A stretch of 55,722 bases of DNA from positions 1 through 55,722 of the IMG/VR virus record IMGVR_UViG_3300025065_000003; one strand, given 5' to 3'. Shown in pieces: positions 2,819 through 11,894 of this stretch. Position 1 is the stretch's first letter. Every line of letters begins with the position of its first letter. The notes below the pieces were generated by a model. That model made no database searches and was not told the DNA's origin. It saw only the letters and a program-made list of their open reading frames with translations. The DNA is from a virus. Its lineage: Duplodnaviria; Caudoviricetes. The translations under genes were made by a program, and so were the position numbers.

Positions 2819-3067
2819 ATGCTTAATACAGTGAAATTTATCTTATTAGCCCAATCCTATATTGGCGCTTTTTTCGCAATGTCATGGTGGCATGATGATT
2901 TACAGTTCGCGCCTTGGTGGCTTAAAACGCCCGTGTTTATTGTGGTATGCGTCTTCCTGGTAGCGCCGGTGGTTTGGATGATATTAGAAAATGAAGAATA
3001 TAAGGCAAACAGCCGCCGGTTAGAGCGGCTGCAATACCTCGAAAAGAAGCACTACTTCTCAGACTGA
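2819..3067 (+). CDS. Two-TM membrane protein (moron)
   Basis: Two hydrophobic segments and a charged tail; converges on the giant gene. Confidence 0.6.
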   Translation: MLNTVKFILLAQSYIGAFFAMSWWHDDLQFAPWWLKTPVFIVVCVFLVAPVVWMILENEEYKANSRRLERLQYLEKKHYFSD

Positions 3068-6000
3068 ACCGTTCCCTCTGCCTGGTTATAAAGCAGGTTA
3101 AAAAAGTCCACCTCGCTATCCATCGCGTCTTCAATCTCGTCGAGCTGTTCGTCGCGCTCGGCGGAAGTTAAGCGCTCATCGGCTTCGATGGCATCGCGCA
3201 CTTTGCGTAGTTCTCTCAGCGTTTTTTCAAGATCTTTCGCCATATCAAACAGCGCTATCTTGCCGCCATGTTCGTCATAGAAACTGCGCGCTTCCTCTCT
3301 GGGTAGATTGATAAACTCCTCATGCAGTTGCCCAACTTCCGTGCGGCGCTCGTAGAACGTTTGAATATCGCCGTACTCATTGACCTCAGACTTGAAGCGG
3401 CCCACAAACGGAATGCGGTGGGCATCGATGGTCTCGCCAGTCGCTGTGCGCTTAATGCTGTCCGCCACCTTTTCAGTAAATGACCAAGCACCACCGCCGT
3501 AATAGTTGACCACATGCTGCAGTACGTCAGGGCTAACATCGATACCGCCTGACCGGTATTCGCTGCCGCCTGTCAGCTCATTAATAAACTGGGCAAAGCT
3601 TTGGTAAGCCGATGGCGTAGAGCGGAAGGCAAGTGAGCTATCTGGCTTGGGCGTGCCGGAGGGGAAATTGTCTTTAAAGATCACGCGGCCTGCAAAGTCT
3701 TCGTTAACGGCTACCTGGGTCACCGAGCCTAACAGTGTAGGCGTGAGGTTTTTCATCACCAAGTTGGATGTATCCTCTGAATCTTGGAAGCCGATGGGTG
3801 AGAAGCTACCAAGAATAGCCAGCGTCATATCTTTACCCGCCTCTGTCAGCGATGATTTGCCCGACATAACGGATTCAGCGTGCGTGCCGATGTTTGAGAA
3901 TACGTTGTATCCATAAGGCAAAGGAATGCGCACATAGTCCTTGCCGCCTGTCATGATGATCAGATTGCGCTCTTTAACGTGGCCGGGAATCTTGTCATAA
4001 AACAGCTCACCATCATCATCCTCATCTGACATCATGCGGTTGAACATGGCCATAGCGTAACTGCCTACAGCCATGCCTACCGCTAACTTTTGCGCGGCGT
4101 TCATGCGGCCCCAGATGTTCATGCGGTTGCCACCGACTGGCGTGTCTTTCACTGTAGCCATGGTGCGAGCAACGTTCATGGTGCCCTGGATAGATGCGTT
4201 GGCAAACATGTAAGCTGCATTAAGTGCAGTTCCCGCTTCCCCTCTGCGGTTAAAGTTGACCGTCAGGTTTTTAGCCAAGCTTGCGGCCTTCTTGCGGCTA
4301 ATGCCTGCCCTGCGCGCATTCACATAAGCTGATAGGCGCACCGCGTTTTCAACGGAGCCGTTCATGTTCTCAACGAAGTCGGCTACGGTCTTCTTCGCCT
4401 TCAGCATATTGCCCATAGTGCCGCCGTTCTCACGGCCAATAATGCTTTTGATCTCTTTGGCTTGACCAGCCAAATCCTTCATATCGAAGTAGCCTGTCTT
4501 GGCCCCATCCTCGATAAACTCATCGAACCAACGATCCCACTCAGTGTTTCGTGATGCGTCAGGGTCAGCAAGCCCTCGATAGGCTGCCTTCATGGCGCGG
4601 GGAATATCTCTCGCCGTCTGCCTGGCAATCTTCTGGCCTTTTATCTTGCCGTCATCCCTGGTCTGCTCTGCCGCCACGTTCAGAAGCGCCGTCTGCACGT
4701 CTCGGGTAAAGTTGGACAGCATGAACTCAGGGTTATAGCTGGTCATCATAGCGGATAGAGCGCGTGTGCCAGCTGCGGCAGTACGTACCAGCAGGTTGTT
4801 CTGCTCTGGCCCTACATTGCGCATTGCGTTCAGCAGGCGCTGGTCGTTGATCTTAATGTAGTATGTCCGGCCCGCCTTCTTGGTTTTGAAGTAACGCTCG
4901 TTCATTTCCATGGCTACCGAGCGCTCTTCTACTTCAATGCGTTTGGTGCCGTCTGGGTTAGTGCGCTCGACCTGAGTACGCTGAGTATCCGGGTCGTTGT
5001 TGGTGAACACCTGCCACAAATCGGGGTTGGGGTTATCCGTGATCAGTGATAGCAAGGCATTGCCAACTTCGTTTTTGCGCTTGCGAATAACAGACTCAGT
5101 GGTATCGACAATCGCTTGCGTAGAAGGTGAAGCCGCTTTTGATAGGCGACCAAGCGCCGTTTTAGTTTCTCGCCCACCGATCTCATAGCCGCGACCAGAA
5201 CGCATCCGGCCACTGCCGTCCTGGCCCACAGGAACATCTTCATCATTTGCCCAACCTTTCAACGGTACGTAGTAGTCATAGCTGGCATCCCAAGCATCTA
5301 GCACCTCATCCGTCTCCAGTCCGCCTTCGCGGATGATCTCGCGGCGATGTGCCAGCATGTCATCCACGATAGCGGCCAAGCGCTCAAGCCGGAGCTTCTT
5401 GCCGCTGCTTTCGGCCTCTTGCATGATGGCGGCCGCTTCGGCATTCGTCATGCCTGAGCCGCCATCTGCGTACTTGGGATCATTAGGATTGCGTTCAGCT
5501 ATTCGGGCATTTCGCTCTGGCGCATGACGAGCATAAAGGTAGGCGTCCAACTCTTCTTGCTGAATGCCGCGCGCAGCCATGCCTTTGGCTAGCTTCTCGA
5601 CGTAGTTGCGGCTTAGCTCATTCAAGTCACGCTCTGTTTTACCGTGGAAAAGCTCCTCCGCTAGGTACACATCATTGTCTTCATTGATGTTGCCACCGGC
5701 TTTCTTGATGGCTTCTTGCGTGACCTTGAGTCGGTTCATTTTGTCTGCCATTTTGCGCAGTGCGGTTTGGCTTAGTGACTCATCAGGTAGCGCAAAGTTA
5801 GTGCTGTCGTTGGCGTAGTCGCCGCCAGGGGGGGATGAAAGGCTAAACAGCAGGTCATTACTATCAACGCCATCAGGATCGAAAGCCGCCTGAGCTGAGC
5901 GGATATCTTCCGTATTAAACAGCACAATCTCTTGCGAGCCATCCCTATCTTTTAGCTGAGTAACAACACCATCAAACCCCATGCTGCGCAACTTTTCCGT

Positions 6001-9000
6001 AAGCGCCCTTGAGTCTTCTGGCGTTGCGTTCATCATGGATTTCTTTTTATCAACTGGCACTCGCAGAAGGGATGACGGCTTAATGAATAGCGGCATGACA
6101 TTTGGTTCAGCCATGCCTGACTTCATGTTGGAATAGCTGCTGGCGAAATCAGGATTATCAATAACGTAGACACCCTGTCCCAACCACCCTGCGTCCTTTT
6201 GGCTCCAGTGGCCAATCTCAAATGCGCTTATGTCTTCAGCTGTTCCGTGGTAGAAATTCTGCGGTACTCCTCTGGATAATCCCGCTTCATTGCTTCCTCG
6301 GTCATTCCGTAGATCGCCTCGAAATCCGTCACCTGGTCCGGTGGGTACTTCTGAGAGAGATCCCGAAACATCGCTTCCAGTTCTTTCCGCTCTTTCTCGG
6401 AAGGTAATTTGCCCGTCATCATTCATCTCCGCTGCGATTGCTTCATCGATAGAGGCAATGTAACCCATGTCTCGGGCGCGTTGCATCCGGCCTTCCTGGC
6501 TCATGTCCAAGCCTTTGGCTTCAGCCCGCTGCCAGGCTGTGCTTTCTGAGCTGCGATTATTCAAGCTGAATAGTGGCGCGTCTGAATCGCTGGCCTGCTG
6601 TTGGCGGCGCAGGTATTCCCGCGACCGCTCAGACAACTGCATAACGTCCGCATCCGTCCAGTTCATGCTGGGGAAGTAGCGACGCAGGAGTTCACGGATT
6701 TTGGCAACAGCGCGACGCAGCACATTGGGCTGCCAGCCTTTTTCTGTGAGGTGGGCAACCATTTCTTCAGCGATGGTTATTTGATGCTCGGGGTTAGATT
6801 GATCAAGGAACGGGTAGCTTTCTAGCACTTCGTTCAGCGCCTCACGTCCACGCGGGTCCAGCGGCAGCGAGTTATAGACTTGCCGCATCACTGGCTCTAG
6901 CTCAGCGCCTAGCACGCCGCGAATGCCCTTATGGCCTACCGCTTCGTGAACGGCAGTTTGTACACCTTCTTCAATGCTGGCGACATTATCAGCAACGACA
7001 TACAGCTCTTCGCCAATAAACATGCCACGCACGTCGCGAGGGTTAACGCCGCGCAGCATCATACCCAGCAGCGCTTCAGGCGGTAGTTCTTTTGTTGATT
7101 GTATGATTCGAGTATTGGAAAGCTCTGGGGTTTCTGCTAAGGCAGCGGTAATGTCGGCAGCGCTAGGGACATCATTAGGCTGACGTGAAGCTGTCTCTGG
7201 CTGCGTACTAAATAGCGCATCTTGCTCTGTCGATGCTTCGGTTTGATCTGTGCCGCTTAGCACTTCTGCAACAGGGCCTTGCCCCCTTCTGCTGGCCTGC
7301 GTCCACTCTCCCTGGCTGATAAGCACAGAACTGCCACGCTCTTCGCTGGTCGCTTGAAGCGTACCGTCTTTATTGATTGAATCGACGGTATAGGAATCGC
7401 CTGCTTTGGCGTAGCCCACATCGGTTGCCAGCTTGATCGTGTCTCCTACCATTGCGCCGCCAAAGGCATCGCTAACCAACTGCTGACGCGGCGTTAACTT
7501 TTTAGGCTTGCGCTGCTTAGATACTGGCGATGTAGCCTGCGTGATAGGCTCAGAGGAAGACGGCGTGCTGAATATGTCGTTCTGCCCGCGTGATTCGGCA
7601 ATATCGTTAGGCCGGTTACTGCCACTTAATACAAAGTCACCTGCCTCACGGTCTGCCTGGGCGCGCAGCGCTTCTTGGATACGCTGATCGGCTTCGGCTT
7701 GCTCAGCTTGTTGAACTTGCTGTTCGCGCTGAGCAAGACTTTCTTCTGTTTGGGTTTCGAGCAAGGGCTCTTGCTGCCGCGCTGCCTGACGCTGCGCTGT
7801 TCGCCTTTCAATGATGCGCTCTCGCGCTTGCGCTCTTTCTTGCGCCGCGCTAGGGAGTGACAGTATCAATTCATGACGGCGCGCCTGCTCTGCATCTGTC
7901 GCAAAATCTAGCACGCTCAATTGATCGTTGGGGTCTGCGTTTTTAAGCGCCTCGGCATAGCGCTGCTCTATCGGCTCCATAACGCGATTGAGCTCACTGC
8001 GTATTTCGTCAGGCGTCCTTTCTTGAGCGATATCAGACGCCTGCCGTTCACTGGCGGGCTGGCTATCACTAAGCGCATCCGGGCGCTCAGCGGATAATGC
8101 CAACTGCTTAGCCTCAGTCAGTGTTTTACCAGTCGTGAAATTATTGCCCTGGTCATAGGCTTTCTTATCAGCGAACACCATAAACATGGGAATACGGCTT
8201 CCACCGCTCCCCATAGAATGATCAGCGATAACAGTGCCGTCGCTGCCTTCCCATACACGACTGCCGTTGGAGCGTCGTCGCCAAGCAATAGATGAAGGCT
8301 GTGAAGTCTGTTGCTCAGTTATGGCGGCATCAGCGTCACCTTGAGCAGCATCCTGCACAGCAAAGCCCCATCCACCCTCTACCTCAACGGGCTGGGCGTT
8401 GGGCGTATCACGGAAGCGCTTGGATAGCTCGACGGCTTTGCGCGTCTGAAACGGCTTGCCGTCGGCCTTGAGGGTTACCGCTGGCTCTGCTTGCGCTCCT
8501 GCTCTAGTGCGTGGGCGTTGTTCTCCTGCACGCGCTGTTCGTGCGTCGTTGACTGCAGGTACTGGTTCACTTCTTCCAGCGTCTTGCCCTGCTTGATTAG
8601 CCTGTCCGCTGCTAGGTGCTGGTGTACGTCCTTCGCTCGCTGCTGTGCTGTTAGGGCCATTCAGTAATGCCTCTTTAAGTTCTCGCGTCACGCTGGCCAG
8701 TGTTTCGCCATCCTTCACACGGCGCGCGGCGTCGTTGATCTGCTGGTTAATTTCTGGCGTGGTTGTTGCTCGCTCAAGTAGCGCAATGGCGTCTGCCGAG
8801 GTTTCCTGTAGGGCGTTATTGCGATCCTTGGCGATGCGGTTGCCTGCCTGCTCAGCCGTTTGGGCGTTATCGTTCAGCGTAGCGAATAAGCGCTTGTCGC
8901 GCACCAGGGTTTGGCGAAGGTTATCCATGACCTTCACGCGCTCACCAATAAGCGACTCTGCCGGATCATCACCAAACAAACCGCCTTGCTCGCCTTGGCT

Positions 9001-11877
9001 TTCGGCAAAGCCTGCTTGGCGCACTTCGTTAGCCAGTAATTCGCGTTGATTGTCGTTGGTCGGCTTCACGCGCTGGAAAACACCGACGGCGGCAAGCTGC
9101 TGGTCGGGGTCGGCAAAAGAACGACCGATAACCGCGCCGTCCTTCTCAGTGATTACCTTGTTAAGCACCGCACCAAACGGCTCAGTGTCCAGTTTGGCAA
9201 TGTCGGCACCGTCGCGCACAAGCTGAGTACGCGGCAGGTTGCTCTCGCGTATCACCGTATCGATATCGCCTTCGCTATTGCGGAACACCTTGGCGGCATC
9301 CATTGCGGTGGCGCTACCTGCAGCAATGTTCGCCTCAGCGGCAGCGCGGCGCGCATCCTCAACGGTAACGCCATCGGCTTCACGCAGCACAATCGCGTTC
9401 ACGTCTGGCTGTTGTAGCTGGCGAGCTAGGTTAATGCGGTGGTGGCCATCAGCTGCGTACACGCTGCCATCGGTGCGCTCATGCAGAATTAGGTTGCCCG
9501 CACGCAAGTCATCCCATTTCTCGATGCCTTCAAGGCGGCTATCTACGCCTTGCTCATTCACCTCTGTACGGAACTGATAGGCTTCGGGGTCTACTTGAAT
9601 GCTCTCAACGGGTACGCGACGCGGTGTTTTTGTGTCTGGGTCTGCAGAAGGCTGATCGGGGGCAATGGCAGGAGTCGCTTCTTCTGCCATCTCCCTATTG
9701 GCTGTAGGCACATTGCCGAAAGGCAGCTCCATAGCGCCTTTACTAACCCACTGCTTCAGGTTTTCAACGGACGTTTCAGAAATATCACCCAGCCCCTGCC
9801 AACCGTCTTCATAATTATCTAGGTAACCTTGGCGTGCCTGCTCTAATGAATCAAAGCCAAGTAGCACCTTGTGCTCATCAAAGGTGCCATCAGGGTTGAT
9901 TTGATCAACTACATAGGCACGCTGGGAGCTAGGGTTATCACCTACAAAAACATCGAGATTGTCGCCGTCTGCCGCCTTCGTGCCCTTAATATCACCATAG
10001 TGGTGTGCCATCAGGCTTTCCCACTGAGCACCTTCTGGTGTGGTACCACGACGTGTTGAGCCTTTAGGGTTCTCGATGGCAATATCAAATCCGTTTAGCC
10101 TTATGCGCCCCTTTCGATAGTTGCCCGCCTCGGCTTGAGCGGGGGTAGGCTCGGTGTTTGTCTCGCGGGCTGCTTGTTCAATTTGCGTAGCAGAATCTTG
10201 CAGCTGTAAGCCACCTGCTTGCGCTGCGTCGTCGCCGTTAATCGTGATTGTGGTATCGGGAAGATCAGCATTAGGGTCGTAGTCTGCAATGCCGTCTTGT
10301 GCGGCTTGCTCGCGCCATGCTTCCTCCCAACGGCGCTGGGCATCCATATCCAGGCCTGCTGCTTGCTCTTGAGTGCCATCATTATTGTCAGTGCTATTTA
10401 AGCGATCCATTACTCGAGCGAAGCGCTCAGAGACGCTTTGTAGCTGCTCACGAACAGGCATTAAAGCATCGCTATCGTTGCGGGACCGCGCCATAGTTTC
10501 AGCCTCAAGTGCGGCGGATATCTCGCTACTAATGGCGTCCATTTCAGCAACGGCATCGTTATCGCCACGCTCCTCAGCAGTAGTGCGCAGGGCTTTAAAG
10601 GCGTCACCGTAGCTGATGGAGTCACGCACCTCGCGCTCGGCGGATGACAACTCAAAGCGGGGTCTGGCGATTAATTCGGCGGCGGTACCGACAGCCTCAG
10701 CATTGGCGGTTTCGGCTTCTGGAGTCAGCGCCTCCTCTGGAGCGGGGGAAGATTGCTCAGTAGGGGATTCGCTAGGCTCTGGCTGCTCACTTCCCTGCTG
10801 ATTATTTCCGCGCAACTCCATGGCGGCGGTACCAGCTCGCACAGCGCCCCCGGTGGGGCCGCCAACAATCACGCCACCTGCCGCACGGCGCGCAGCGGTT
10901 GTGGCATTCCAGCCTGTCTCTGTGCCCACAGACTCCCCAGCGTACTCAATACCGCCTTCTTGAATCGCCTCAGTCACACTTTCTGTAACGGCGGCGCGAC
11001 CAACAGCCCCGGGTATTTGTCGTGCGCTAGTTACCGCATTTCCACTACCTGGGAGTAATCGGCCAAGAGCAAAGCGGTCCAACAGCACGGAAGCAGCGGC
11101 GGTAGGCCCGGACACAGCATAGTCGCGACCTTCCGGCATTCCTTCGCGGTTGTCGTTCTCAACACGGCCTTCGCCTACCTCCTGTGTTCGCGCCGCCAGG
11201 TAGGCAGGCAGGCTTACCACTAGGCCTGCCATATCGGCCAGTGCTGCTGGCCCTTGCTCGGCAGCAGCGCCCGCGATGGTTCTAATGCTTGGCTCATCAA
11301 GGGCGCGGTCAATCGTGTAGTTAGGCTGGTAGCCTAGGCTAATGTCTTCAACCGCCTGCCCAGTGTCGATAAGCCCGGTGCTGGTATCCTCTGGCTTGGC
11401 GCGCATCGTGAAGTCTAGGCCAAAGCCGCCTAGCGCCACATCCGGTTCGTAGCCCCGCTCGCGCATCTCATCAACGCTGCCGCCAATTACACCTGGGTTA
11501 ATGCCTCCAAGCGCGTCGGTAATCGCCTTTTCTCCCCTGTCCGCTACGTTGCCGACGAACTGCAGCGCGTTACCTGCTAGATCAAGTCCGCGTTCGCCAG
11601 CGTTGCGCAAGGCATTGCTGGCTAAGCCGGGCGCTTCAGGCTGGCCCTCGTCAGTGCTGGGCTGATTTTCGCGCTCACCAAACACGTCAGATGCCGTACG
11701 GGTAAAGAACTGGCCTTGCACATCTTCGCGCAGCGATGCTGGCGTATTGGGCTCAATGACGCGGCGGTAGAACTCGCCTCGCACGCGTTGTTTGGTCTGC
11801 CAGTCAGCGGCCTTAAAGTCTGGATCGTTGGCGATGTCTGTCCATCTAGGGGGAGTTTGATTATTGGCGGCGTTCAC
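3052..11877 (-). CDS. Giant polyvalent virion/ejection protein (InPase-like, ParB-like, zincin metallopeptidase, ADP-ribosyltransferase and LPD38-like C-terminal domains)
   Basis: GNYRKG..IENPKGS..HYGDIKGT..DGDNLDVF..DEHK (InPase, ~9735-10140); ADGHHR (ParB-like, ~9440); HEAVGH (6931-6948); FYHGT..GVY..GFDGV..EIVLF (ART, ~5850-6260); IPLPYG/SFSP region (LPD38-like). GTG at 11877 follows AAGGAG. Confidence 0.88.
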   Translation of the reverse strand: MNAANNQTPPRWTDIANDPDFKAADWQTKQRVRGEFYRRVIEPNTPASLREDVQGQFFTRTASDVFGERENQPSTDEGQPEAPGLASNALRNAGERGLDLAGNALQFVGNVADRGEKAITDALGGINPGVIGGSVDEMRERGYEPDVALGGFGLDFTMRAKPEDTSTGLIDTGQAVEDISLGYQPNYTIDRALDEPSIRTIAGAAAEQGPAALADMAGLVVSLPAYLAARTQEVGEGRVENDNREGMPEGRDYAVSGPTAAASVLLDRFALGRLLPGSGNAVTSARQIPGAVGRAAVTESVTEAIQEGGIEYAGESVGTETGWNATTAARRAAGGVIVGGPTGGAVRAGTAAMELRGNNQQGSEQPEPSESPTEQSSPAPEEALTPEAETANAEAVGTAAELIARPRFELSSAEREVRDSISYGDAFKALRTTAEERGDNDAVAEMDAISSEISAALEAETMARSRNDSDALMPVREQLQSVSERFARVMDRLNSTDNNDGTQEQAAGLDMDAQRRWEEAWREQAAQDGIADYDPNADLPDTTITINGDDAAQAGGLQLQDSATQIEQAARETNTEPTPAQAEAGNYRKGRIRLNGFDIAIENPKGSTRRGTTPEGAQWESLMAHHYGDIKGTKAADGDNLDVFVGDNPSSQRAYVVDQINPDGTFDEHKVLLGFDSLEQARQGYLDNYEDGWQGLGDISETSVENLKQWVSKGAMELPFGNVPTANREMAEEATPAIAPDQPSADPDTKTPRRVPVESIQVDPEAYQFRTEVNEQGVDSRLEGIEKWDDLRAGNLILHERTDGSVYAADGHHRINLARQLQQPDVNAIVLREADGVTVEDARRAAAEANIAAGSATAMDAAKVFRNSEGDIDTVIRESNLPRTQLVRDGADIAKLDTEPFGAVLNKVITEKDGAVIGRSFADPDQQLAAVGVFQRVKPTNDNQRELLANEVRQAGFAESQGEQGGLFGDDPAESLIGERVKVMDNLRQTLVRDKRLFATLNDNAQTAEQAGNRIAKDRNNALQETSADAIALLERATTTPEINQQINDAARRVKDGETLASVTRELKEALLNGPNSTAASEGRTPAPSSGQANQAGQDAGRSEPVPAVNDARTARAGEQRPRTRAGAQAEPAVTLKADGKPFQTRKAVELSKRFRDTPNAQPVEVEGGWGFAVQDAAQGDADAAITEQQTSQPSSIAWRRRSNGSRVWEGSDGTVIADHSMGSGGSRIPMFMVFADKKAYDQGNNFTTGKTLTEAKQLALSAERPDALSDSQPASERQASDIAQERTPDEIRSELNRVMEPIEQRYAEALKNADPNDQLSVLDFATDAEQARRHELILSLPSAAQERAQARERIIERRTAQRQAARQQEPLLETQTEESLAQREQQVQQAEQAEADQRIQEALRAQADREAGDFVLSGSNRPNDIAESRGQNDIFSTPSSSEPITQATSPVSKQRKPKKLTPRQQLVSDAFGGAMVGDTIKLATDVGYAKAGDSYTVDSINKDGTLQATSEERGSSVLISQGEWTQASRRGQGPVAEVLSGTDQTEASTEQDALFSTQPETASRQPNDVPSAADITAALAETPELSNTRIIQSTKELPPEALLGMMLRGVNPRDVRGMFIGEELYVVADNVASIEEGVQTAVHEAVGHKGIRGVLGAELEPVMRQVYNSLPLDPRGREALNEVLESYPFLDQSNPEHQITIAEEMVAHLTEKGWQPNVLRRAVAKIRELLRRYFPSMNWTDADVMQLSERSREYLRRQQQASDSDAPLFSLNNRSSESTAWQRAEAKGLDMSQEGRMQRARDMGYIASIDEAIAAEMNDDGQITFRERAERTGSDVSGSLSEVPTGPGDGFRGDLRNDRGSNEAGLSRGVPQNFYHGTAEDISAFEIGHWSQKDAGWLGQGVYVIDNPDFASSYSNMKSGMAEPNVMPLFIKPSSLLRVPVDKKKSMMNATPEDSRALTEKLRSMGFDGVVTQLKDRDGSQEIVLFNTEDIRSAQAAFDPDGVDSNDLLFSLSSPPGGDYANDSTNFALPDESLSQTALRKMADKMNRLKVTQEAIKKAGGNINEDNDVYLAEELFHGKTERDLNELSRNYVEKLAKGMAARGIQQEELDAYLYARHAPERNARIAERNPNDPKYADGGSGMTNAEAAAIMQEAESSGKKLRLERLAAIVDDMLAHRREIIREGGLETDEVLDAWDASYDYYVPLKGWANDEDVPVGQDGSGRMRSGRGYEIGGRETKTALGRLSKAASPSTQAIVDTTESVIRKRKNEVGNALLSLITDNPNPDLWQVFTNNDPDTQRTQVERTNPDGTKRIEVEERSVAMEMNERYFKTKKAGRTYYIKINDQRLLNAMRNVGPEQNNLLVRTAAAGTRALSAMMTSYNPEFMLSNFTRDVQTALLNVAAEQTRDDGKIKGQKIARQTARDIPRAMKAAYRGLADPDASRNTEWDRWFDEFIEDGAKTGYFDMKDLAGQAKEIKSIIGRENGGTMGNMLKAKKTVADFVENMNGSVENAVRLSAYVNARRAGISRKKAASLAKNLTVNFNRRGEAGTALNAAYMFANASIQGTMNVARTMATVKDTPVGGNRMNIWGRMNAAQKLAVGMAVGSYAMAMFNRMMSDEDDDGELFYDKIPGHVKERNLIIMTGGKDYVRIPLPYGYNVFSNIGTHAESVMSGKSSLTEAGKDMTLAILGSFSPIGFQDSEDTSNLVMKNLTPTLLGSVTQVAVNEDFAGRVIFKDNFPSGTPKPDSSLAFRSTPSAYQSFAQFINELTGGSEYRSGGIDVSPDVLQHVVNYYGGGAWSFTEKVADSIKRTATGETIDAHRIPFVGRFKSEVNEYGDIQTFYERRTEVGQLHEEFINLPREEARSFYDEHGGKIALFDMAKDLEKTLRELRKVRDAIEADERLTSAERDEQLDEIEDAMDSEVDFFNLLYNQAEGTVQSEK
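6228..6422 (-). CDS. Putative overprinted (+1 frame) small protein nested in the giant gene, just upstream of the ART core
   Basis: GGAG RBS then ATGATG; 64-aa helical, globular-looking sequence; the host frame here is a G/R/S/D-rich linker using AGA/CGA/GGA codons. Confidence 0.6.
   Translation of the reverse strand: MMTGKLPSEKERKELEAMFRDLSQKYPPDQVTDFEAIYGMTEEAMKRDYPEEYRRISTTEQLKT
8475..8660 (-). CDS. Putative overprinted (+1 frame) small protein nested in the giant gene, after the ParB-like region
   Basis: AAAGAGG RBS then ATG; 61-aa helical sequence with genome-typical CAG/AAG/GAG/CTG codons; the host frame is a low-complexity linker. Confidence 0.6.
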   Translation of the reverse strand: MALTAQQRAKDVHQHLAADRLIKQGKTLEEVNQYLQSTTHEQRVQENNAHALEQERKQSQR

Positions 11878-11894
11878 ACGCGGCTCCTTCAAGG

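Follow-up and report, generated by a model that had tools for sequence, protein, structure and literature searches.

Does the linker of a giant phage protein carry a second gene, and if so, how is that gene read and what might its product do? The question is raised by the record IMGVR_UViG_3300025065_000003, a virus of the Caudoviricetes analysed here over its whole length (hereafter the window: 55,722 bases, complete as a viral record and bearing direct terminal repeats). One gene of the window encodes a giant polyvalent protein, and a first-pass annotation, made from the letters alone, had marked a short open reading frame (ORF) in the +1 frame of this gene, just behind a ParB-like module, as an overprinted gene for a partner of that module and as one instance of a general design rule. 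The nested ORF is a genuine coding frame under purifying selection. Taken as a whole, the explanation that we consider probable is that it is an independently initiated gene, that its product is a likely partner of the ParB-like module, and that the frame of the small gene is the older of the two.

A nested coding frame under purifying selection

The nested ORF (Table 1) opens with an ATG at 8660-8658 and closes with a TAA at 8477-8475, position 1 of each +1 codon falling on position 2 of a main-frame codon of the giant gene, and its translation is exactly the peptide that had been quoted. The Shine-Dalgarno (SD)-like AAAGAGG, the 9-nucleotide spacer and the ATG are likewise exactly as described, and in strength and spacing this signal is similar to the one ahead of another ORF of the genome, 25700-26641 (taagagg, then 8 nucleotides). 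The composition of the segment switches with the frame in which it is read. Read in the +1 frame, the nested ORF has a GC content of 0.72/0.31/0.77 at codon positions 1/2/3, while the main frame over the same bases has 0.77/0.72/0.31 and the whole giant gene 0.64/0.46/0.56. Scored with a codon-usage table built on 9788 codons from 28 further ORFs of the window, the nested ORF reaches 0.317 in its own frame, the best of the 2885 +1-frame windows scored and the equal of the giant gene's own main-frame mean (0.291), whereas the main-frame linker scores -0.155, the 38th lowest of 2885 windows. The contrast that had been noted by eye, genome-typical codons in the nested frame and an atypical linker in the main frame, is thus upheld by the scores and by the switch in GC at the third position.

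The length of the nested ORF is by itself ordinary and within chance; it is the conservation pattern that exceeds chance. On its own strand the giant gene contains 17 alternative ORFs that reach at least 40 residues. Every one of them is a +1-frame ORF and +2 has none, which fits the genome-wide rarity of open +2 frames: over 62 codons the +1 frame is free of stops in 686 of 10936 windows taken from the genome's long ORFs (6.3%), and the +2 frame in 48 of 10936 windows from its genes (0.4%).

The substitution pattern sets the nested ORF apart from the remainder of the giant gene. Between the window and seven relatives, differences at main-frame positions 1:2:3 number 76:21:23 inside the nested ORF; elsewhere in the gene they number 4006:3397:7183. 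In sliding windows of 61 codons (n=2679), the twelve highest position-1/position-3 ratios listed (up to 3.26) all overlap the nested ORF, the maximum outside being 0.96, and no other region of the giant gene has a +1-frame substitution pattern. The switch in periodicity coincides exactly with the nested ATG and TAA. Pairwise comparison against the window by the Nei-Gojobori method gives a ratio of non-synonymous to synonymous divergence (pN/pS) in the +1 frame of the nested region of 0.05-0.12 for the moderately diverged relatives (L003, L006, L007, L032 and L033) and of 0.45-0.70 for the more distant ones (L008, L034 and L035); scored in the main frame, the same eight pairs, of nine in total, give 1.26-3.95. 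The flanks show the normal main-frame periodicity with high synonymous divergence (pS 0.16-0.76), main-frame pN/pS being 0.00-0.43 in all pairs and +1-frame pN/pS at least 1.0 where it is defined.

Conservation among homologues, on which the first-pass annotation had staked its proposal, was followed through 19 related loci, which are drawn from seven IMG/VR contigs (78-91% protein identity), two further viral contigs and bacterial genomes and which comprise 15 distinct sequences in the nested stretch, 4 of the 19 being duplicates. The +1 ORF is intact in 14 of the 15 distinct sequences (18 of the 19 loci), with lengths of 56-91 codons, the remaining copy being broken by an indel. Relatives keep it down to 40-57% peptide identity, and in 12 of 13 comparisons the +1 peptide is better conserved than the main-frame linker. 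Indels among the copies are multiples of three, and the short forms have their stop codon in common. The bacterial genomes that carry the locus include Vreelandella sedimenti, Halomonas sp. DWK9, Halomonas sp. H2 and Bisbaumannia pacifica, with further genomes of the same host family among the 9 positives in 342 species genomes; the named hosts of prophages and viral contigs with the nested family are all Halomonadaceae. Among the INPHARED phages, blastn with the 1901-nucleotide region found no match, and tblastn with the nested peptide returned noise only (E-value 4).

The opposing view, that the ORF arose by chance and owes its conservation to an RNA or DNA element or to close kinship of the copies, can appeal to the ordinary length of the ORF and to a peptide without an annotated family. 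Against it stand the three-base periodicity in the +1 frame, bounded by ATG and TAA and set between normal flanks, the retention of the ORF in the 40-57% identical relatives, and family members outside phages. An RNA element in particular is disfavoured by the folding of the 281-nucleotide region, which is no better than that of shuffled sequences (z = 0.64; 146 of 200 shuffles at least as good). It is by conservation and substitution pattern, not by length, that a chance ORF is excluded, and we attach almost no weight to this alternative.

The main frame is not a passive bystander. It is open in all 14 intact distinct copies, and since it corresponds to the +2 frame of the small gene, a frame that is rarely open (48 of 10936 windows), its openness in 14 of 15 distinct copies shows that it too is kept by selection. 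Both frames are thus functional on this sequence comparison, and the segment is a real dual-coding one.

Table 1. Coordinates of the nested gene, its signals, its neighbours in the giant gene and a second candidate ORF (positions in the window)
Feature	Position	Strand	Description and basis
Nested +1-frame gene	8475-8660	-	61 codons + TAA; three-helix product MALTAQQRAKDVHQHLAADRLIKQGKTLEEVNQYLQSTTHEQRVQENNAHALEQERKQSQR; ORF listing, conservation, selection
Shine-Dalgarno-like AAAGAGG	8670-8676	-	9-nt spacer cattactga before the nested ATG; in the main frame part of LKEAL
Main-frame linker	8473-8661	-	Residues 1078-1140; P/A/G/S/R-rich, low complexity; dual-coded with the nested gene
ParB/Noc-like module	8662-9615	-	Residues 760-1077; motif ADGHHR; Foldseek on model; predicted partner of the nested protein
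Small conserved domain	8350-8472	-	VTLKADGKPFQTRKAVELSKRF...GGWGFAV; directly 3' of the nested stop; alignments with relatives
Host polyvalent-protein gene	3052-11892	-	2946 codons; InPase, ParB-like module, ART-PolyVal, LPD38
Second +1-frame ORF	6228-6422	-	64 residues; GGAG before ATGATG; linker before the ART-PolyVal domain

Access of ribosomes to the +1 frame

Independent initiation at the SD sequence and ATG of the nested gene is the best reading of the start region and would fit it better than a frameshift. A purine-rich SD sequence stands at fixed spacing in 14 of 14 intact distinct copies (AAAGAGG, AAGGAGA, AAGGAGG or AAGGAAG), and the start codons of these copies, 12 ATG and 2 GTG, occupy the same alignment column. 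The 9-nucleotide distance from SD to ATG suits initiation, and conservation of the +1 frame starts at codon 2. In the Bisbaumannia copy a main-frame Asn codon has changed from AAT to CGT and the nested start is still valid, ATG having become GTG.

A programmed ribosomal frameshift would instead join residues 1 to ~1077 of the giant protein to a helical tail, and a free 61-residue protein would not be made. The SD-like sequence could in principle stimulate shifting, and a frame swap at the DNA level in one related record (protein P0015, locus L040) shows that such a fusion can be encoded. However, in 5 of the 14 distinct intact copies a +1-frame stop codon (TGA or TAA) lies immediately before the ATG, so that the shift would need to happen at the start codon itself, and neither a slippery run, a main-frame stop nor a rare codon was found at the nested start. 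The SD spacing that fits initiation and the covariation of the start codon between ATG and GTG also speak against shifting, as does the second frameshift that the frame-swapped record carries in the same gene, before the ART domain. We therefore regard a frameshift as highly improbable and proceed with independent initiation.

In the frame-swapped record itself (L040 3918-4461 and L057, IMGVR_UViG_2648501858_000003) an indel in the middle of the overlap exchanges the two frames, with the result that the ParB-like part of P0015 is continued by the C-terminal two thirds of the small protein, while the beginning of the small protein leads into the remainder of the giant one. Given the second frameshift before the ART domain, L040 is read as a broken prophage gene or an assembly error. 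With the exception of P0015/L040, a search for in-frame fused forms of the small protein among 432 longer candidates found none at E<=1.

As to the transcript, no sigma-70-like site was detected on either strand in 8200-9300 that could serve as an internal promoter, and the four terminator-like sites in the scanned region are all on the opposite strand. Contigs from RNA libraries that are at least 85% similar to the window cover the nested ORF (X19, 8362-9700; X23, 8356-8832), cover it in part (X21, 8361-8565) or lie outside it (X24, 8201-8351), and X19 differs from the window at 128 letters; because these contigs belong to relatives, and because DNA may be present in such libraries, they are no evidence of expression.

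The small protein and its predicted partner

The nested product is a protein of about 60 residues with three helices in a helix-turn-helix (HTH)-like pattern. Its AlphaFold2 model, computed from a 12-row alignment, has a predicted local distance difference test score (pLDDT) of 86.2 and places the helices at residues 5-23, 28-37 and 40-59. An exhaustive profile search of 1.84 billion representative proteins (E<=1e-3) matched 13 proteins, eight of which are small proteins of 57-91 residues that come from other sources (P0005, P0007, P0008, P0009, P0011, P0012, P0014 and P0016). All eight conform to h-H-x-x-L-A-x-(D/N)-R-L ... G ... (Y/H)-L-x-x-T-x-x-E ... N, and the nested product belongs to this small family, which has no name. 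A long form of 90-91 residues (L039 4001-4273, L049 and L050) carries a repeated 'QGYS..Q..HL' unit and a Lys/Pro-rich tail, and at these three loci the main-frame linker is correspondingly longer. A free-standing member also exists as a 118-residue coding sequence on a conjugative Marinobacter plasmid, in which the family domain is followed by a Cys-rich tail (hhalign 96%, E-value 4.7e-9) and the neighbouring genes encode a DNA methylase, a ResIII/DEAD helicase and cpYpsA. Scans of viral contigs, metagenome contigs and INPHARED phages for distant members yielded no true relatives.

Several candidates were set aside. P0010 (with HTH repeats) and P0013 (with TPRs) match the motif only; P0006 was dropped because its sequence looks chimeric by eye; L038 is a false match within a 1102-codon ORF, putatively a topoisomerase by eye, of a contig labelled GVMAG; and L052 (putatively HemA-like by eye) and L053, both from the class sample, are spurious.

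Searches with the 61-residue protein returned 0 families in Pfam and nothing in NCBIfam, a single PHROGs match (phrog_17698, 'transposase', E-value 0.015) and motif-level matches only in a PDB profile search, including a designed 'CAP repeat'. Its model found nothing at E<=0.001 with Foldseek against PDB and BFVD and no usable match in the ESM Atlas. The motif RLIKQGKTLEEVNQYL is similar to the way in which classical HTH units begin, a resemblance at the level of the motif only, the 61-residue form having no HTH match in Pfam.

Immediately upstream of the nested gene lies the module that the first-pass annotation had called ParB-like. The position stands, as the gene directly adjoins the module; the identity finds support at the level of the fold only, sequence searches with residues 760-1077 in Pfam (no ParBc) and in the PDB having found no match. 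With a model of these residues (pLDDT 67.9), ParB, Noc, KorB and PadC chains make up all of the 22 best-ranked Foldseek matches listed (probability 0.96-1.00), with a best E-value of 1.1e-3 and template modelling (TM) scores of 0.3-0.47, and the motif ADGHHR is invariant in the module alignment. The match at rank 14 is KorB of plasmid RK2 (PDB 8qa9). KorB is a ParB-family protein regulated by a directly bound small helical partner, KorA, which is encoded by a separate, non-overlapping gene; the comparison with the present pair is an analogy only.

The small protein is predicted to bind the adjacent ParB-like module. Complex prediction was run with custom alignments for the module (14 rows) and the small protein (14 rows, same genome order) and with three controls; the score of 0.70 (runs of 0.70, 0.71 and 0.69), against 0.01 for the best control, expresses a model's confidence and is not a measurement. 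The mark used for this score is reached by 58 of 80 solved complexes and by 2 of 110 mismatched pairs, counts that hold only roughly here on account of the custom alignments. The runs have at least 96% of contacts in common, with a partner pLDDT of at least 85. On the giant protein the predicted contacts involve residues 795-802, 832-836, 841-859 and 880-891, and on the small protein residues 11-16, 18-19, 44 and 47-48, which lie on helices 1 and 3. Contact residues V12, H13, Q14, H15, L16, A18, D19, V44, N47 and N48 are invariant in the 12-row alignment A2, and H13, L16 and N47 are invariant in the wider 14-row alignment as well. The claim that the nested gene encodes a domain-specific partner is therefore carried as far as a prediction that stands well clear of its controls.

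The related claim, that domain and partner move as one cassette, stands in part. The nested gene follows directly after the ParB-like module in 19 of 19 loci (one copy being the indel-broken one), as the proposed co-occurrence would have it, and module and gene are found together in giant proteins of varied architecture (open frames of 2496-3743 codons) that have only parts of their frames in common with the window's gene. The association does not extend to two distant homologues of the module, in Ruegeria phage 45A6 and in the Dunaliella viridis virus SI2 record (L037, HQ332136.1), where no homologue of the peptide was found. In 45A6 the module lies within a giant ORF; in SI2 it is split off as a 792-residue gene, followed by a 49-residue ORF (L037 4284-4433) that overlaps the ends of both its neighbours and then by an 830-residue gene. 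The SI2 arrangement is the split counterpart of the fused one, and both modules have a similar low-complexity tail. The 49-residue ORF was considered as a family member and proved unrelated (hhalign probability 1%).

The small gene might instead be real and independently translated and yet have a function unrelated to the ParB-like module, for example as an HTH DNA-binding regulator or in anti-defence. Linkers are the easiest place for dual coding, and the likeness of RLIKQGKTLEEVNQYL to HTH starts (P0010, the designed 'CAP repeat' and phrog_17698) points the same way. The long form P0008, and only the long form, passes two Pfam cutoffs, scoring 31 bits where 27 are required for DUF7626 and 26.3 bits where 26.1 are required for RepB_primase_C, and the Marinobacter relative lies beside genes of restriction-modification type. 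Set against these points, the complex prediction is far above its controls and uses the conserved residues of the small protein, the gene keeps its place after the module at every locus of the set, and no HTH family reaches threshold for the 61-residue protein itself. On balance we consider an unrelated function a rather unlikely, if respectable, alternative to the partner role.

The partner role could be played out as follows. On late mRNA, ribosomes would start the nested gene independently at its own SD and ATG, while those travelling along the giant ORF would translate the same 186 nucleotides as a disordered linker, both frames being kept by selection. The small protein would then bind the ParB/Noc-like module encoded immediately upstream, with its helices 1 and 3 packing against giant-protein residues ~795-891, and may act as a dedicated partner, either as an inhibitor or as a chaperone, so that within the producing cell a nuclease- or NTPase-type domain would stay silent or properly folded. 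Alternatively, it could be a cofactor delivered together with the ParB-like module.

Origin of the two frames and comparison with other nested genes

The term overprinted had implied that the small gene was born de novo within the giant gene, and this is doubtful. Homologues exist outside the overlap, among them the free-standing Marinobacter family member, and it is the small ORF, not the linker, that has the codon usage of the genome (0.317 against -0.155). From its genome-like codon usage and its relatives outside the overlap, the small-gene frame would be the older of the two, and we lean, with modest conviction, toward a linker that reads across an older small gene over the opposite order. 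The giant-gene linker may have arisen in this way when modules fused or when the gene was inserted.

Several observations weigh against the explanation as a whole or against parts of it. The pair with L002, which has just 7 differences, gives a pN/pS of 0.92 for the +1 frame against 0.48 for the main frame. Because the loci are related, and some of them duplicates, their counts are not independent events. The case for translation is built on sequence features, and the RNA-library contigs can show neither transcription nor initiation. Binding is claimed on one in-silico prediction, for which custom 14-row alignments were paired by genome order. The ParB-like label is of fold level with the modest scores given above, and no structural or family match assigns a function to the small protein. 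The Marinobacter relative, in the one context read, is not beside a Pfam-detectable ParB gene, and the two distant module homologues come without the peptide. As to origin, the availability of ORFs speaks for the opposite order, since within an existing gene +1 ORFs arise easily (6.3% of windows) and an open +2 frame is rare (0.4%).

Nested genes as such are familiar in phages, and the present segment is a fresh variant of that known phenomenon. In the Rz/Rz1 spanin genes of phage lambda and many others, a small gene is embedded in the +1 frame of a larger late gene. The likeness is close in that both are same-strand +1 embeddings in a late gene of a tailed double-stranded DNA phage, with a start of their own and with products that act as a complex (here predicted). 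The difference lies in the products and their setting: Rz1 is a lysis lipoprotein, whereas the protein described here is a soluble helical one whose host is a virion-associated polyvalent protein and whose overlap is confined to an inter-domain linker. The small protein has no sequence or fold match to spanins in Pfam, PHROGs, or Foldseek searches of PDB and BFVD.

A second point of comparison is given by the overprinted genes of small viruses, such as B, K and E of phiX174 (reviews PMC8227390 and PMC3494269). They too have two coding frames, of which one has a disordered or odd product, and an asymmetry in codon usage that hints at the older frame. The window differs in that a 55.7-kb genome is not under strong size pressure and in that the odd composition is found in the large host frame. 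With the odd frame being that of the large gene, and with relatives of the small gene elsewhere, birth of the small gene de novo is not favoured. Outside viruses, GndA within gnd of Escherichia coli is a short out-of-frame protein in a longer same-strand gene (PMC11230408); same-strand nesting is what it has in common with the window, while it belongs to a cellular gene and gives no evidence of a common family or function.

The host protein itself is of a described kind. Polyvalent proteins with DdrB-like ParB domains were treated by Iyer et al. (2017; PMC5512222), and the window's protein resembles these in combining InPase, ART-PolyVal and LPD38 with a module of ParB/Srx type, by fold, near virion genes. 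A count of words in the main text of that paper gives 0 for 'overlapping' and 0 for 'frameshift', while 'nested' is used only of a hairpin, so that nested genes are undescribed there. The wider literature searched, on polyvalent proteins together with overlapping, nested or out-of-frame genes (for Iyer et al., 2017, the main text), likewise describes no nested gene within any polyvalent protein, in agreement with the first-pass annotation.

The case matters first for annotation: a gene enclosed entirely by a longer one on the same strand is beyond what gene callers can report, and such proteins are thus invisible in phage annotation. It offers a clean instance, on comparative evidence, of a nested gene in a large double-stranded DNA phage and not in a small virus limited by size. 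It is also a concrete case of a fusion protein whose linker, and not the small gene that it overlaps, seems to occupy the younger frame. If the predicted binding holds, injected polyvalent proteins would carry built-in regulators, which could explain how producing cells tolerate nuclease- or toxin-like domains and could open a route to partners of uncharacterised effector domains.

Two nested ORFs had been proposed in the giant gene, and the second, probably the one at 6228-6422, is at present suggestive where that at 8475-8660 is firm. Its GC content at +1-frame codon positions 1/2/3 is 0.53/0.36/0.64, and its windows rank next after those of 8475-8660 by +1 codon usage. Compared with the one close relative L055, each of the 4 substitutions in the linker part is silent when read in +1 and changes the amino acid when read in the main frame; of the 19 substitutions beyond the ORF, 14 hit main-frame position 3. 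The relative L056, 44% identical, shows no homology to the peptide, and in ART modules at a greater distance the linker is missing altogether. Two nested genes in this giant gene are accordingly plausible, as far as base composition and a single close comparison suggest.

A general design rule is not established. In the comparison with the seven relatives, 16 of the 17 alternative ORFs are without +1-frame selection, ORF 6228-6422 being barely covered (71 comparisons), and nested copies of the family come only from prophages and viral contigs with Halomonadaceae as their named hosts. That polyvalent genes generally grow by fusing modules across small genes, with the partner staying on as a regulator (inhibitor, chaperone or cofactor) of the enzymatic domain beside it and with two such cassettes in this gene, one for the ParB-like module at 8475-8660 and one for ART at 6228-6422, strikes us as unlikely; the same low expectation attaches to the corollary that the other frame of a swallowed gene becomes the linker and that domain and partner travel as a dual-coded cassette.

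The remaining features concern the giant gene and its surroundings. Pfam places InPase at residues 585-716 (E-value 6.9e-55), ART-PolyVal at residues 1874-2001 (E-value 3.9e-12) and LPD38 at residues 2632-2830 (E-value 2.5e-42), and the giant ORF ends a block of virion genes for an internal virion protein, a tail fibre, a portal/adaptor-like protein and TerL. It thus combines, in one large ORF with virion-gene neighbours, the unrelated effector domains and the LPD domain by which polyvalent proteins are recognised. The small conserved domain 3' of the nested stop, for which a Pfam search returned no family, forms the downstream end of the conserved cassette in the alignments. At 8350-8362, just past this GGWGFAV domain, the giant genes of relatives and the contigs from three runs part from the window, those contigs leaving its sequence at 8356-8362, and this point has the look of a boundary at which modules of the polyvalent gene are shuffled. 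At the other end of the gene, the first listed start of the giant ORF is a TTG that lies 3 bases past the stop of the upstream gene and has no SD-like sequence, and in relatives the frame is open still further upstream of the position equivalent to 11892.

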